Virus record (IMG/VR): IMGVR_UViG_3300028797_000096
Coordinates: 77,860 to 141,859 of that record
DNA from: a virus
Taxonomy: Duplodnaviria > Heunggongvirae > Uroviricota > Caudoviricetes
Direction: 5' to 3' (one strand)
Length of the DNA: 64,000 nucleotides
Shown: piece by piece, positions 9,507 to 45,527 of the stretch
Layout of the letters: each line of letters opens with the position of its first letter
Position numbering within the stretch: position 1 is the stretch's first letter
Translations under genes and position numbers: made by a program
The notes under the pieces: generated by a model
The model's database searches: none
What the model saw: only the letters and a program-made list of their open reading frames with translations
What the model was told of the DNA's origin: nothing

Positions 9507-9537
9507 TTTACTATTTGTTTTAGATAGTATATAATCA
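9507..9537 (+). promoter_or_regulatory. phage promoter, GTTTTAC-N18-TATAAT variant
   Basis: tgTTTTACtatttgttttagatagTATATAAT upstream of a 15-codon mini-ORF. Confidence 0.4.
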
Positions 9538-9637
9538 TGTCGTATTCAGAATAAAAGGAGTATGACATGAAGTATATATCTAGAGTTACTTCAGGTAAGA
9601 TCTTGCGTAAGTAAGATTTTATTTTGACAATAAAAAT

Positions 9638-9672
9638 GACCGAATATTTTAAATGTATTCGGTCTTTTTTTT
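9638..9672 (+). terminator. rho-independent terminator
   Basis: GACCGAATA-ttttaaatg-TATTCGGTC then TTTTTTTT. Confidence 0.75.
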
Positions 9673-9703
9673 ATGCTAATATAAATTTATAACAAAAGGA
9701 TAT

Positions 9704-10141
9704 ATGATGAGAGCAGACCATTGGATACCTATTAATGAATATATCTTTAAACACAATGGTGCAGAAGATATGGTTAAAATATCTAATATCTTAGATTTAG
9801 TTGGTAAATGTATTTATGTTCGTCCACCACACGCACGTTATAGTTCATATTATACTTTGCCTAAATACTATATCATTGGTATAGATAAAAATAATAGTAC
9901 TTTTACTGTATACCAGATTAAAGAAACAGTAGTTAAACAATATCGAGAAAATACTTATGAAAATAGTGAGTATACTACTTTTAAGTTTGACTTAGGATTA
10001 AAGAAACATATTAAAGTTAAAATGAATGCCAAAAACAATTGGTTAAAGATAGGTACTAATATAATCCGTATACAAGATATAAAAGAAACAGACCTTAAAC
10101 AAACACAAGAAGTTTGTACTTATGAAAGAATGTATGACTAA
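9704..10141 (+). CDS. paralog family B protein
   Basis: 145 aa, same length and residue pattern as 11135..11572. Confidence 0.55.
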   Translation: MMRADHWIPINEYIFKHNGAEDMVKISNILDLVGKCIYVRPPHARYSSYYTLPKYYIIGIDKNNSTFTVYQIKETVVKQYRENTYENSEYTTFKFDLGLKKHIKVKMNAKNNWLKIGTNIIRIQDIKETDLKQTQEVCTYERMYD

Positions 10142-10152
10142 AGGAGTGTAAA

Positions 10153-10359
10153 ATGAAACTAAGTGAACTGATTACAATGCTAGAAAGAGCAAAATTAATG
10201 TATGGAGACTTGCCAGTATTATGTGCAACTGACTCAGAAATAAATACTATTGGGGATTTATTCGAGGTACAAGTAGGTAAGTTAGAAGAAGATGATGAAT
10301 ATGTAAATTCTACAGTTAAACCCGGAGATCAATCAGTATTGTTAATCCCAGCAATCTAA
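10153..10359 (+). CDS. hypothetical protein
   Basis: 68-aa ORF with SD aaggagtgtaaaATG. Confidence 0.45.
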   Translation: MKLSELITMLERAKLMYGDLPVLCATDSEINTIGDLFEVQVGKLEEDDEYVNSTVKPGDQSVLLIPAI

Positions 10360-10370
10360 AGAAGTTTAAT

Positions 10371-10556
10371 ATGTATGTTATAAAAAGAGATGATGGTGGT
10401 TATGTAATGTCATATAATAGTGACTTTGATATGCTTGAAATAATCTTTGATAAAGGTGCTGCAAGGATATTTGATACCTTAGGGGAAGCACAAAATGCCA
10501 GAGCAGATTTATCCGAGATTGCACCATTAAGAACATTTACTATAGAAAAGATATAG
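10371..10556 (+). CDS. hypothetical protein
   Basis: 61-aa ORF, weak signals. Confidence 0.4.
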   Translation: MYVIKRDDGGYVMSYNSDFDMLEIIFDKGAARIFDTLGEAQNARADLSEIAPLRTFTIEKI

Positions 10557-10572
10557 TTAAAGGAGAATAGAT

Positions 10573-10989
10573 ATGAGTACTACTTATAACTTAAAAGACT
10601 TTGATGAATACCAAGAATTCTTTGATATGGTCATTGAAGACATCGAAGATAATAATTTAATGTCGAAAGAAGGCTTTCCATTAGATGAACATAATAATCC
10701 AATTAATATTGATTGGTTATGGGAAAACTTCGGACAACATTTAGATGGAACTCAAACTGGATTAGGTATGCAAGTGTTTAATGAAGTTATTAAATACTAT
10801 GAACCTATCTCTAAAGAGCGTAAAAAAGAAGTAATAGAAATGGCTAAGTCTGACTATAAAGATGCCTACGAATGCGGACATCTTAATCCAGAAGAAGATT
10901 GTGACCCTCAACTCTTAAGGGAATGTGGGTTAGTCACTAAACAAGAACAAGAAGTATATACAGATACCTATGATGAACTTGTGGGATAA
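10573..10989 (+). CDS. hypothetical acidic protein
   Basis: 138 aa, SD aaggagaatagatATG. Confidence 0.55.
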   Translation: MSTTYNLKDFDEYQEFFDMVIEDIEDNNLMSKEGFPLDEHNNPINIDWLWENFGQHLDGTQTGLGMQVFNEVIKYYEPISKERKKEVIEMAKSDYKDAYECGHLNPEEDCDPQLLRECGLVTKQEQEVYTDTYDELVG

Positions 10990-43130: not shown

Positions 43131-43131
43131 T

Positions 43132-43614
43132 ATGGCAATAAGAGAAATAGTTAATCAAGATAATGAAATTCTTCGTAAAATTGCAGATCCAATAATAGAA
43201 TCTGATAGGGTTGATATTTCTCTTGAAAATTTAATTTATGATATGGTTCAAACTGTAAAAAGTGTAGATGGTGCGGGTTTAGCAGCACCTCAAGTAGGAA
43301 TATCTAAAAGAGTTATTGTTGTAAAAGATATAAATAAAGAAGGAAATTTTTTCGAAATGATTAACCCTGAAATTATTTGGACATCTTTTGATAAGCAATA
43401 TGAATTTGAAGGTTGTTTAAGTGTATTAGGAAAAGATGGTAAACCTATTCATGAAAGAGTAGAGAGATATAAAAGGATAAGAGTTAAATGGGAAGATGTT
43501 GATGGCAATTTACATGAAGAATTAATCAAAGATCCGTTAACGAGTAGAATTATACAGCATGAAACTGATCATTTAAATGGAAAGTTGTTTACAGACTATT
43601 TACAAAAGGAGTAA
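43132..43614 (+). CDS. def: peptide deformylase
   Basis: all three PDF motifs: GAGLAAPQVG, EGCLSV, QHETDHLNG. Confidence 0.85.
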   Translation: MAIREIVNQDNEILRKIADPIIESDRVDISLENLIYDMVQTVKSVDGAGLAAPQVGISKRVIVVKDINKEGNFFEMINPEIIWTSFDKQYEFEGCLSVLGKDGKPIHERVERYKRIRVKWEDVDGNLHEELIKDPLTSRIIQHETDHLNGKLFTDYLQKE

Positions 43615-43617
43615 TAT

Positions 43618-44217
43618 ATGTCAGAAATGTTACATTGTTGTGATAAAGATTTGAATACTATTCAACCTTATGATAGAGATGTAGTACATAAAGAAGGTAT
43701 TTGGCATAAGACTTCTCATGTATGGTTTTATGATCGAGAAGGATATGTATATTTCCAAGTAAGAGCGGATGCAGATAAATTATATACTACTGCTTCTGGA
43801 CATGTATTAGCGGGTGAAGATCCTAAAATGACAGCTTATAGAGAAACAGCAGAAGAAATAGGTATAAATATAAATACAAATAATTTAGAATTAATAGAAA
43901 TAGATAGCTGGAAATCAGATACAGAAACTAAGCATGATCATGCATATGCTTATATTTATTTATATGAAATTGCAGCAGGATTTATTGGTTTTAGCGTTAA
44001 TACTACAGAAGTAACTGATATTATTAAGATTAAAGCCGAAGATTTATTAGGATATTTATTAGGTTTACCATTTGAATGTGATCAATATTCGATTTGGGAA
44101 AGAAAGAATTTAAAACATAAAAAAGATTTGTTATTAATGAATGGTGAAGTTGGTATATTAAAATATGGTAGAATATTACAAGCTATACATAATAGGACTA
44201 AAAAAGAGGACAAATAG
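43618..44217 (+). CDS. Nudix hydrolase
   Basis: Nudix box GHVLAGEDPKMTAYRETAEEIGI. Confidence 0.7.
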   Translation: MSEMLHCCDKDLNTIQPYDRDVVHKEGIWHKTSHVWFYDREGYVYFQVRADADKLYTTASGHVLAGEDPKMTAYRETAEEIGININTNNLELIEIDSWKSDTETKHDHAYAYIYLYEIAAGFIGFSVNTTEVTDIIKIKAEDLLGYLLGLPFECDQYSIWERKNLKHKKDLLLMNGEVGILKYGRILQAIHNRTKKEDK

Positions 44218-44219
44218 GT

Positions 44220-44876
44220 ATGCATAATTACAAATTTGGTGTTACACCTGCCGAATTAAAAGAAGCAAGAAAACTTATTATTCAAGATATTAAATCTAAT
44301 AATAAAGTTAATAATCCTATTTGTAATATGACTCTTCAAGATTATTTTGATATAATTAAAGAATGTGTATTGGGTTCCTGTGATGAAAATGGTATAATAA
44401 CTGATCCATATACTGGTTGTTGGTATAGTGAATCAAAAAGACAAGATATGAGAAAACTATCATCTATAGAAGTTGCTAAAGCTTGGATGGATGGTAGAGG
44501 TTTATTTACTGAACATTTTAATTCTCAATTATGGGCTGATGAAAAACATCAAGGTAATTGGGATAATATAGGTCAACATGACCAAAATCAATGGTATCAT
44601 GAAGATAGACTAAATGATCCATTATGGTTTAAAGAATGTGTTCAAGTTATAGGTCATGCTGGACATCCTACAGAAATGGTAACATGCGGTAATTTTAATC
44701 CTTATGAATATGAACCAAATAAATGGTGTATGAGATTTGGAACCTTTAGTAGGAGTAGTTATTATATGCTTAAAGGTTATCTATATATGAAAAAGAAAGG
44801 TATATCGGTTTTTATAGATGGTGCTAAAGAATATCTTACAATTAAACAAAAAGGAAAATTAAATGGCAAATATTAA
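44220..44876 (+). CDS. hypothetical protein
   Basis: 218-aa ORF, Trp/His-rich. Confidence 0.5.
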   Translation: MHNYKFGVTPAELKEARKLIIQDIKSNNKVNNPICNMTLQDYFDIIKECVLGSCDENGIITDPYTGCWYSESKRQDMRKLSSIEVAKAWMDGRGLFTEHFNSQLWADEKHQGNWDNIGQHDQNQWYHEDRLNDPLWFKECVQVIGHAGHPTEMVTCGNFNPYEYEPNKWCMRFGTFSRSSYYMLKGYLYMKKKGISVFIDGAKEYLTIKQKGKLNGKY

Positions 44877-45084
44877 AGCAAATGCATATGCAGCGGAAAG
44901 ATGTAAAACCCCATTGTTTAAACATGAAGATAGAAGATGGCATGTTGATTATGTTGAAAACGATAAATGGACAGAGAAATCTTTTATGGACCCAGAAAAA
45001 GCATATGAATTTTATTTGAGTATTTTTCATAAATTAGAAAAAGAATATACAAGAAAAAATAGAGAAGGTAAAGGTAGTAGATAA
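44863..45084 (+). CDS. hypothetical protein
   Basis: 73-aa ORF. Confidence 0.45.
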   Translation: MANIKANAYAAERCKTPLFKHEDRRWHVDYVENDKWTEKSFMDPEKAYEFYLSIFHKLEKEYTRKNREGKGSR

Positions 45085-45482
45085 TGGATAAAATACCAGC
45101 AATTTTTTGTGATATAGATGGTGTAGTTACGCATAAATTTGCTATTCCTAATTATGATCATTTTGGTGAACCTAATGAAAAGATGATATCTGTAATCGAA
45201 CAGCTTGGTCAAAAGTTTACTATCGTATTCATTACAGGTCGTTGGGCTATGGGTCAAGAAAAAGTAGAAAAATTACTTAATGAACTATTTCCAAATATTA
45301 AAAAGAAAGTATTTTGTAAACCACATGATTACCCCGGTACTACTGCTGAATTTAAACTCGATATGATTAAAAAGTTAGAAGAAAAAGGCTATGAGTTTAA
45401 TTTAGGCTTAGATGATCACAGCGCAGTAGTTGGTTTAATGCATAATCATGGTATATTTATGGCACAAGTATTATCAGATTAA
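45084..45482 (+). CDS. HAD-superfamily phosphatase
   Basis: motif I FCDIDGVVT (DxDGV) at N-terminus. Confidence 0.55.
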   Translation: MDKIPAIFCDIDGVVTHKFAIPNYDHFGEPNEKMISVIEQLGQKFTIVFITGRWAMGQEKVEKLLNELFPNIKKKVFCKPHDYPGTTAEFKLDMIKKLEEKGYEFNLGLDDHSAVVGLMHNHGIFMAQVLSD

Positions 45483-45496
45483 AACAGAAAATAAAT

Positions 45497-45527
45497 GCTT
45501 TACTTTTAAGAAAAATAGTTCTATAAT
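45497..45527 (+). promoter_or_regulatory. phage promoter GCTTTAC-N18-TATAAT
   Basis: aatGCTTTACttttaagaaaaatagttcTATAAT. Confidence 0.5.

Follow-up and report, generated by a model that had tools for sequence, protein, structure and literature searches.

The window, that is, the whole 64,000-nt stretch of DNA analysed here, comes from an uncultured jumbo phage with a genome of ~231 kb, of which ~84 kb of sequence was examined. The capsid protein falls in the Gp23 Pfam family and is ≤34% identical to that of any cultured phage, and the phage is no more than a distant relative of T4, while the similarity of an auxiliary gene points to a rumen alphaproteobacterium as the probable host. Small early-type ORFs, genes for nucleic-acid repair enzymes, a regulator-like gene, both tRNA clusters and short ORF-free units of the window are preceded by copies of one signal, composed of a T-run, G(C/T)TTTAC, TTTT and then TATAAT 17-18 nt past the C. 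We found 21 such sites with an invariant TTTAC in the window, all on the + strand, and the motif also occurs elsewhere in the genome, with another 3-4 sites within the 10 kb upstream of the window. The twelve or more copies announced in a preliminary description of this DNA were thus confirmed and extended, the sites at 800, 15216, 16293, 21172, 21988, 35188, 42398, 47255 and 52200 being additional. Ten of the twelve coordinates given there are exact GCTTTAC starts (15990, 20135, 23255, 24947, 27540, 28500, 29385, 35067, 40906 and 45497), and the other two, 9507 and 28834, correspond to the variant GTTTTAC, with its G at 9505 and 28835.

At the left end of the window, a GCTTTAC-N18-TATAGT site (800..830) precedes ORF 866-1486, and GTTTTAC-N18-TATAAT (9505..9535) is followed by a 15-codon ORF (9567-9614), a terminator (9638-9664) and an operon from 9704. 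The variant AATTTAC-N18-TATAAT (15216..15246) marks the start of a 1.5-kb ORF-free region, followed by GCTTTAC-N17-TATAAT (15990..16019) with a hairpin and T-run immediately upstream and by the variant CATTTAC-N17-TATAAT (16293..16322), from which a transcript would end at the terminator at 16594-16621. The next sites each stand before an ORF: GCTTTAC-N18-TAAGAT, with the weakest -10 of the set (20135..20165, ORF 20181-20516), the variant ACTTTAC-N18-TATAAT (21172..21202, ORF 21212-21607), GTTTTAC-N18-TATTAT (21988..22018, ORF 22043-22399), GCTTTAC-N18-TATTAT (23255..23285, ORF 23318-23650), GCTTTAC-N18-TATATT (24947..24977, ORF 25002-26195, encoding a multi-HTH protein, one helix of which resembles sigma region 4.2) and GCTTTAC-N18-TATAAT (27540..27570, ORF 27597-28274). 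An ORF-free structured RNA of ~300 nt would run from GCTTTAC-N17-TATTAT (28500..28529) to the terminator at 28804-28828. Just beyond it, GTTTTAC-N17-TATAAT (28835..28864) has the ATG of ORF 28871-29377 only 6 nt past its -10, predicting a leaderless mRNA, and GCTTTAC-N17-TATAAT (29385..29414) precedes ORF 29439-30431.

A unit of ~85 nt extends from GCTTTAC-N17-TATATT (35067..35096) to the terminator at 35156-35184, after which GTTTTAC-N18-TATAAT (35188..35218) precedes a kinase-phosphatase-RNA ligase gene (35240-37441). GCTTTAC-N17-TATAAT (40906..40935) lies after the terminator at 40878-40899 and before ORF 40958-41434, the variant ATTTTAC-N18-TATATT (42398..42428) before ORF 42452-42817, and GCTTTAC-N18-TATAAT (45497..45527) before a uracil-DNA glycosylase-like ORF (45627-46127). 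The tRNA genes would be served by TGTTTAC-N18-TATATT (47255..47285), which carries the exact T4 early -35 string and lies upstream of the cluster from 47595, and by the variant TATTTAC-N17-TATAAT (52200..52229), upstream of tRNA-Met (52304-52380). Site orientation was strictly co-directional with the downstream genes, and no + strand site was found in the 19-kb tail-fibre/LRR block from 53.8 kb to ~72.7 kb. Terminators were less regular neighbours than the preliminary description, which had most sites right after one, would have it: a scan found a hairpin with a T-run immediately ahead of four sites (16125, 28804, 35156 and 40878), and inspection by eye raised this to ~7 of 21.

Counting confirmed that the signal is far more frequent than chance would allow. 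GCTTTAC occurs 27 times in the window versus 7.6±2.9 in shuffles, and it is among the most intergenic-enriched 7-mers, with 12 of its 18 + strand copies intergenic. The stricter pattern G[CT]TTTAC-N17/18-TAnnnT matched 17 times on the + strand and never on the - strand, against an expectation of 0.57±0.73 (maximum 3) from dinucleotide shuffles of the window.

Alignment of the 21 sites revealed two conserved blocks at a nearly fixed distance. TTTAC is invariant (21/21), and the -10, which begins 17 or 18 nt after the C, has the form TAnnnT and matches TATAAT at five or more of six positions everywhere except at 20135 (TAAGAT); the 17-18-nt distance reported earlier held for all twelve sites listed at that time, with TATAAT, TATTAT or TATATT as the -10 besides this TAAGAT. 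Read as a hexamer, TTTAC(T/A) stands 16-17 bp upstream of the -10 in 21/21 sites, and TTTACN matches TTGACA at 4-5 of 6 positions, the third position being T in every site. TTTAC covers -35 to -31 in about 12 N18 sites and lies one base nearer the -10 in about nine N17 sites; the earlier placement of the box at -35 rather than -30 was correct. The T at -33 is invariant across the 21 sites and in >50 sites clade-wide.

The sequence around the hexamer is also biased. T occurs in 11-16 of the 21 sites at each of the five positions before the box, so the statement that TTTT usually comes before the box is right for a T-rich run but was overstated as a literal claim; overstated too was the literal string TTTGCTTTAC, present in only some sites. 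This T-run spans -42 to -38; near -45/-44 and at -52, 14-15 of the 21 sites have A, while G(C/T) is conserved at -37/-36 and TTTT follows TTTAC. The variants without GC (AATTTAC, CATTTAC, TATTTAC and ATTTTAC) still keep TTTAC, indicating that TTTAC, not GCTT, forms the conserved core. Conservation of G(C/T) at -37/-36 and of TTT past the TTTAC reaches beyond the standard -35 hexamer, and these bases could contact another protein, a point against the host-polymerase reading given below.

For comparison we used the capsid-gene loci of nine IMG/VR relatives whose capsid proteins are 68-84% identical to that of this phage. The motif was present in every related phage examined; the 30 sites counted all lay opposite the capsid gene, none of them on its own strand. 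Orthologous promoters, those of the GMP-reductase operon and the DnaJ-like gene, retained G(C/T)TTTAC and the -10 although the spacer had diverged. The ATG of the DnaJ-like gene lies 6-7 nt past the -10 in five phages, a distance that would put the start site where a sigma-70 promoter places transcription initiation.

The promoter reading is supported jointly by the geometry and strand bias of the sites, by their place before genes and their conservation in relatives, and by leaderless starts 6-7 nt past the -10. We conclude that GCTTTAC...TATAAT marks a real and conserved family of phage promoters with at least 21 members, and this half of the earlier interpretation stands. We consider it extremely improbable that the repeats are a dispersed element of another sort, such as sites bound by a replication or packaging protein or what is left of a mobile repeat; some copies do lie in ORF-free DNA (15.2-16.7 kb), but only two short blocks are conserved with a free spacer, unlike a repeat family, the copies keep strictly to the direction of the downstream genes and a fixed distance to start codons, leaderless genes included, and the -10 is the consensus TATAAT.

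The other half of the earlier interpretation, in which these are middle-class promoters subject to MotA/AsiA-type sigma appropriation with the box moved ~6 bp upstream, now appears very unlikely. The resemblance behind it is genuine: the 7-10-nt string (t)(t)(t)TGCTTTA, or (T)TTTGCTTTA, matches the MotA-box consensus of T4, (a/t)(a/t)(a/t)TGCTTtA, exactly and is combined, as in T4 middle promoters, with a sigma-70-type -10 (PMC2988021). However, T4 places its MotA box 12±1 bp away from the -10 (PMC2988021), whereas 18-19 bp separate the end of GCTTTA from the -10 here; the box is centred near -36 and not -30, and TTTAC occupies the exact position of the -35 hexamer. At the MotA spacing of N11-13 only two + strand fits were found, both of them the same promoters paired with the poor hexamers TACGTT and TAGTTT. 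The GC-less variants, too, give an invariant core of TTTAC where the MotA reading would have GCTT. The TGCTTTA identity is best explained as the upstream G(C/T) overlapping TTTAC.

Searches for the proteins themselves, which the preliminary description had proposed, gave the same answer. Using tblastn against the window, its flanks and the capsid-gene loci of the nine relatives, we detected no homologue of T4 MotA (best E 0.28) or AsiA (best E 1.6), and the Pfam records of the called genes (~84 kb of the 231-kb genome) list neither a MotA nor an AsiA family; MotA is confined to few T4 relatives (PMC1524935). Nor is there a separate canonical early promoter class able to express such an activator first. 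On the + strand of the window, TTGACA-N16-18 promoters numbered zero and TTGAC-N17/18-TAnnnT occurred once against 4.1 expected, indicating that the window holds no rival canonical promoter class.

We infer instead that the sites are probably early promoters, which the host RNA polymerase with its primary sigma-70-family factor would read before replication. T4 early promoters carry GTTTAC at -36 to -31, T at -33 and an A-rich region at -40 to -44, and they also precede tRNA genes (PMC1524935); they work without a viral factor (PMC2988021; PMC6024815). T4's own early sites show the TTTAC-N18-TATAAT spacing seen in the window. Like these promoters and their counterparts in RB69, 44RR, RB49, RB43 and Aeh1, the sites described here have TTTAC at -35 to -31, T and not G at -33, a conserved G just upstream, A/T-rich sequence upstream of the -35 and the consensus TATAAT 18 nt past the C; they stand before many small early ORFs and tRNA genes, and the major capsid gene lies on the other strand.

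The two sets differ in several respects. The G lies one base further upstream here, at -37 and not at -36 as in T4 (G(C/T)TTTAC versus GTTTAC), and the unshifted T4 register was found only in TGTTTAC at 47255 and at L016:2209. The box is flanked by T-runs, and the A/T-rich upstream region is built differently, with a T-run at -42 to -38 and A near -45/-44 and at -52 where T4 is A-rich at about -40 to -44. A conserved TGn extended -10 is missing, about half of the sites are spaced one base shorter, and the likely host is an alphaproteobacterium of the rumen instead of an enterobacterium.

With canonical sigma-70/sigma-A promoters (TTGACA-N17-TATAAT) the sites share a consensus -10, a second hexamer 16-18 bp from it and a predicted start ~7 nt downstream, but the third -35 base, G, is replaced by T at every site and extra bases are conserved on both sides of the hexamer. 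The -35 of the lac promoter is TTTACA. Candidate host MAGs carry canonical TTGACA-N17-TATAAT promoters, so the phage, with its invariant T at -33, avoids the -35 that is optimal for the host, which counts against the host-polymerase reading.

Under the host-polymerase reading, the A/T tract (T-run at about -42 to -38, A-rich near -45 and -52) may serve as an UP-like element upstream of a -35 element TTTAC(T/A) at -35 to -30, which would be flanked by G(C/T) at -37/-36 and then by TTT. A spacer of 16-17 bp, counted from the hexamer, would lead to the consensus -10 TATAAT, initiation would occur ~7 nt downstream of the -10, and the resulting mRNAs would have short Shine-Dalgarno leaders of 15-30 nt or be leaderless. 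T at -33, where the canonical base is G, would be a phage-specific -35 variant, the same as in T4 early promoters. The GCTTTAC...TATAAT set, in layout nearly the same as those T4 promoters, would be a well-documented example of a known promoter kind with no new mechanism.

The invariance of T at -33 and the conservation beyond the hexamer could alternatively mean that a phage-specified component, and not unmodified host sigma region 4, reads the box G(C/T)TTTACTTT, which we regard as unlikely. Candidates for such a component are a phage sigma-70-family factor, a virion-delivered Alt-like polymerase modifier, and a DNA-binding protein standing in for sigma region 4 or helping it. Beyond the ~84 kb examined, the 231-kb genome may encode a phage sigma, a virion-delivered factor, an Alt-like enzyme or a MotA analogue, which also weighs against the host-polymerase reading. 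T at -33 has been linked to the Alt-modified polymerase in T4 (PMC1524935), and canonical TTGACA is absent on the + strand though the candidate host MAGs use it; but the sequence examined here yielded no Alt homologue, and T4's TTTAC variant works with the unmodified host polymerase.

One possible protein of this kind is the multi-HTH product of ORF 25002-26195, in which the helix TRERVRQI reproduces the one with which primary sigma factors read the -35. The ORF matches Sigma70_r4 (27.6 bits), its family profile has its best hit in region 4.2 of RpoD/SigA (E about 3e-8), and a confident structural model (pLDDT 84.8) contains HTH and winged-helix domains. The product has no sigma region 2, which rules it out as a sigma factor. 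We hold it to be distinctly improbable that the box G(C/T)TTTACTTT is a deliberately non-host -35 working with a phage protein, for which this early multi-HTH protein would be the leading candidate. The protein could then occupy -35 elements and might shut off canonical host TTGACA promoters but spare the TTTAC promoters of the phage; alternatively, it might attach to the phage box and switch early transcription off or on. If this were true, it would be a "sigma region 4 mimic", redirecting the host polymerase otherwise than T4 AsiA/MotA.

Against a role of ORF 25002 in reading the promoters, the ORF itself lies behind one of them, both in this phage and in a distant relative: its orthologue in L211, only 33% identical, is preceded by TTTTGCTTTAC-N18-TATAAA. 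Since the gene is predicted to be expressed from one of these promoters, its product would not be needed for their first use. Against a phage-specified component in general, the GCTTTAC-N17-TATAAT cluster was also found in unrelated smaller phage contigs (L105, L115 and L069), a recurrence that a general sigma-70-type solution would fit better than a clade-specific activator.

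A search anchored on TTTAC recovered 21 sites on the + strand of the window, showing that the repeated signal, for which the preliminary description had listed 12 sites of the form GCTTTAC-N17/18-TATAAT (N counting the nucleotides between the C of TTTAC and the -10 box), was real and had been understated. Ten of those 12 coordinates were exact GCTTTAC starts, whereas 9507 and 28834 were GTTTTAC, and the literal TTTGCTTTAC had been overstated, as it was not general to the sites. GCTTTAC occurred 27 times in the window against 7.6 ± 2.9 in shuffles, and all 17 matches to the strict pattern G[CT]TTTAC-N17/18-TAnnnT fell on the + strand, none on the − strand, compared with 0.57 ± 0.73 in shuffles. 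An unbiased 7-mer count of the + strand likewise placed GCTTTAC and overlapping words among the words most enriched in intergenic DNA, together with TATAATA, T-runs and a Shine-Dalgarno word. Across the 21 sites, TTTAC was invariant (21/21) and was preceded by G (15/21) and then C (12/21) or T (5/21), the gap from TTTAC to the -10 was 17 nt in 9 and 18 nt in 12, and the -10 itself was TATAAT or a one-mismatch variant. The consensus ran in the order T-rich run, G(C/T), TTTAC, T/A, TTT, A-rich spacer, TATAAT and often then ATAAT, with A-rich positions ~9–10 and 17 nt 5′ of TTTAC in the column counts. Literature searches for GCTTTAC returned only incidental strings, in papers on Felix O1 and DLP6.

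With the -10 placed at -12 to -7, the N18 sites have TTTAC at -35 to -31 and the N17 sites one base nearer, where a -35 hexamer would be expected; as a hexamer, TTTAC(T/A) matched TTGACA at 4–5 of 6 positions, with a spacer of 16–17 bp. Judged from sequence, the sites would have the layout of strong sigma-70-type promoters like those that T4 uses early. In T4, early promoters carry GTTTAC from -36 to -31, in which the G at -36 is conserved and -33 is T instead of G; positions -40 to -44 are rich in A, and tRNA genes are among those preceded by such promoters (PMC1524935). These promoters require no viral factor (PMC6024815; PMC2988021). The likeness extended to TGTTTAC exactly at window position 47255 and at L016:2209, in the 10 kb upstream of the window, and a scan of 50 kb of T4 DNA with our pattern picked up, on the early strand, sites like TGTTTAC-N18-TATAAT. 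One systematic difference was observed, in that the conserved G lies one base further upstream in the phage described here. The motif thus nearly equals the T4 early promoter, and we consider it probable that the sites are early promoters read by the host primary sigma factor.

Two other readings of the boxes were rejected. If the -35 were read as TTGCTT, which is T5-like, the spacer would become 20–21 bp, and an archaeal TATA box is at odds with the Shine-Dalgarno sequences between box and ATG. Peptide deformylase and an L,D-transpeptidase domain, both encoded by the phage, likewise speak for a bacterial host.

The sites had initially been likened to the T4 MotA box, (a/t)(a/t)(a/t)TGCTTtA, which in T4 middle promoters is centred at -30 and lies 12 ± 1 bp from the -10 (PMC2988021), whereas GCTTTA in this phage ends 18–19 bp away and therefore lacks the position that defines MotA-dependent promoters. 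Only two + strand sites fitted MotA spacing, both being the same promoters paired with poor hexamers, and nine − strand matches to this geometry lay inside coding regions and were explained by strand composition. Since variants without GC (AATTTAC, CATTTAC, TATTTAC, ATTTTAC and ACTTTAC) all retain TTTAC, the invariant core is TTTAC and not the GCTT of the MotA box, and the resemblance is a string coincidence arising from G(C/T) plus TTTA. We also searched for MotA/AsiA homologues and other factors in the window plus 10 kb on each side (~84 kb of ~231 kb) and in the capsid-gene loci of nine relatives; tblastn with T4 MotA, AsiA, Alt, gp33, DsbA and Alc gave a best E value of 0.28 there, and no MotA or AsiA family was present among the Pfam records for genes called in five loci (window and 10 kb flanks). 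Sigma appropriation of the MotA kind is accordingly a very improbable explanation.

The placement of the sites is consistent with their prediction as promoters, and a non-promoter element would be hardly credible. At most sites, the next start codon followed the -10 by 21–35 nt with a Shine-Dalgarno sequence between. Two sites (47255 and 52200) preceded tRNA clusters, 3–4 additional sites lay on the same strand in the 10 kb upstream of the window, and no + strand sites were found in the tail-fibre block from 53.8 to ~72.7 kb, a distribution expected for a pre-replicative promoter class. Direct adjacency to an upstream terminator was detected at 4 sites by scan and at ~7 by eye, fewer than the majority originally claimed. 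The annotated ATG of a DnaJ-like gene followed the -10 by only 6–7 nt in five phages (L016:5693-5730 and the orthologues in loci L138, L143, L144 and L145), leaving no room for a ribosome-binding site, and the ATG of ORF 28871-29377 stood 6 nt after its -10 (window 28859-28873). Both are predicted to be leaderless genes, and leaderless mRNAs starting at the A of ATG would put the start exactly where a sigma-70-type -10 predicts.

Downstream of sites 9505, 28500 and 35067, and of three others at 15.2–16.3 kb, a terminator comes before any ORF, or after nothing more than a 15-codon ORF. Several of these promoter-to-terminator units look like small RNAs, including one of ~300 nt at 28530-28830 (fold z-score -4.1; partly conserved in the relatives' loci L006 and L007) and one of ~85 nt at 35097-35190 (z-score -5.1). 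The unit of ~130 nt at 9536-9672 contains a 15-codon ORF (MKYISRVTSGKILRK) and then a strong terminator, which stands just before the operon at 9704, and it may be a leader or attenuator.

The window has a G+C content of 27–35% over its 64 kb and carries nearly all ORFs on the + strand. Neither megablast nor tblastn of structural genes against 50,697 deposited phage genomes detected a close relative, and the distant matches to cultured phages were limited to the capsid and RNA ligase. Its one minus-strand gene encodes the major capsid protein (16716-18257; T4 Gp23 Pfam family, E 6.5e-22), with at most 34% identity to cultured phages. Besides 14–15 tRNA genes at 47.6–52.4 kb and large LRR and fibre-repeat proteins resembling tail fibres from 53.8 kb onward, it holds numerous small ORFs of unknown function, a polynucleotide kinase-phosphatase-RNA ligase, and nuclease, peptide deformylase, NUDIX and uracil-DNA glycosylase domains. 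Its proteins occur on metagenome contigs, two from one ENA assembly (95 kb and 136 kb) and a single one of 231,566 bp, so the window belongs to a ~231 kb phage that is uncultured. More than 100 close homologues exist for the GMP-reductase gene that lies just 5′ of the window, many of them on contigs of 180–245 kb, indicating that the clade is large.

We then examined conservation of the motif in this clade. Nine IMG/VR contigs encode capsids 68–84% identical to that of the window, and in their 118.6 kb the strict pattern occurred 30 times opposite the capsid strand and never on it. Comparison of GMP-reductase loci from four more phages and one IMG/VR contig placed the motif at orthologous positions before the GMP-reductase operon, the DnaJ-like gene and a divergently oriented gene, with G(C/T)TTTAC and the -10 kept and the spacer sequences diverged.

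The phage GMP reductase (L016:2258-3391) was 60–67% identical to those of many MAGs from rumen and gut, labelled either Alphaproteobacteria or Candidatus Enterousia, which suggests a rumen alphaproteobacterium as host. It was 83% identical to the copy on the 245 kb contig JAFZWP010000001.1, labelled a ‘Bacilli’ MAG and probably a phage genome of the same clade. Loci of the candidate host MAGs contained canonical TTGACA-N17-TATAAT promoters, one directly before a tRNA gene, and also a few TTTAC-type sites; these are individual-site listings, and hexamer enrichment upstream of TATAAT over 63 loci was confounded by orthology. In the window, by comparison, TTGAC-N17/18-TAnnnT occurred once on the + strand (4.1 expected) and the TTGACA form was absent from that strand, so the phage appears to employ a non-optimal -35 systematically, like T4 in E. 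coli.

An exact-pattern scan of IMG/VR gave mostly single, probably chance matches among the matches listed. Rescoring the fetched loci for clustering identified three unrelated contigs of 41–47 kb (L105, L115/L108 and L069) with 3–7 co-oriented sites each, of the form AAATAA-GCTTTAC-TTTT-N-TATAAT; in one of the three, a short stretch matches a gene of a marine cyanophage. Recurrence of the box in phages that share nothing else fits the universal primary sigma factor better than a lineage-specific activator. Reading or modification of the -35 box by a phage-specified component is unlikely, though it might account for the invariance of T at -33 and of the G(C/T) and TTT that flank the box, a puzzle that T4 poses as well.

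Promoter 24947 is followed by ORF 25002-26195 (+; 397 aa), in which residues 126-161 match Pfam Sigma70_r4 at 27.6 bits (cutoff 24.1). A word-based search recovered only the protein itself, and an exhaustive search added 20 others, giving a small metagenomic family of 21 whose profile best matched region 4.2 of primary sigma factors (RpoD/SigA; E ~3e-8). The aligned helix reads YTyqelGdkFGlTReRvRqI in the family against YTLEEVGKQFDVTRERIRQI, and one HTH of the protein, TRERVRQI, differs little from the helix with which primary sigma factors read the -35. Sigma region 2 is absent from the protein, the AlphaFold model (pLDDT 84.8) comprises three helix-turn-helix units and two winged-helix domains, and the fold search returned generic winged-helix repeats only. 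A phage sigma factor was rejected on these grounds, and we predict that the protein binds DNA and carries a reading head resembling sigma region 4.2. An orthologue (33% identical) has TTTTGCTTTAC-N18-TATAAA upstream. Being itself made from one such promoter, the protein is not needed for the first use of the sites; it could act later on phage promoters or host -35 elements, and is possibly a -35-binding regulator.

These findings map the pre-replicative region of phages of ~230 kb that form a large, uncultured clade in rumen and gut, with 21 promoters, terminators, leaderless genes and several small-RNA-like promoter-to-terminator units. They reveal no new mechanism. The T4-type -35 (TTTAC, T at -33) reaches beyond the T4 relatives of enterobacteria to a distant jumbo clade and unrelated small phages, which brings back the old question of what keeps strong phage early promoters from using the host-optimal TTGACA. 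The motif can also serve as an early-gene annotation marker in metagenomic phages of the clade.

A second motif, AGTTCTAT with A/T-rich bases after it, had 9 copies in the window, a total not above chance; 8 of them were intergenic. Copies lay at 18493-18500 and 24915-24922 (−) and at 48962, 51634, 52533, 53704 and 60265 (+), and the motif stood before tail-fibre gene 60305 and ~235 nt 5′ of the capsid gene. In four relatives (loci L143-L146) it lay 15–40 nt, sometimes more, 5′ of tail-tube and other structural genes on the minus strand. We regard it as a candidate for a separate promoter class, late or middle, alongside the GCTTTAC one.

The capsid gene is flanked by ORF-free DNA of 1.5 kb (15218-16715) and 0.33 kb (18258-18583), with G+C above its surroundings and no Rfam matches, in which blocks 15507-15850 and 18270-18551 are ~80% identical to relative L006. 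The three promoters at 15.2–16.3 kb (+) face the 3′ end of the capsid gene, and their units end at terminator 16594-16621. Rfam matches overall were tRNAs only, with a sub-threshold tmRNA/tRNA-clan match at 46622-46774 (+; 36.4 bits, gathering score 50) within a 2 kb ORF-poor stretch of higher G+C directly 5′ of the tRNA cluster.
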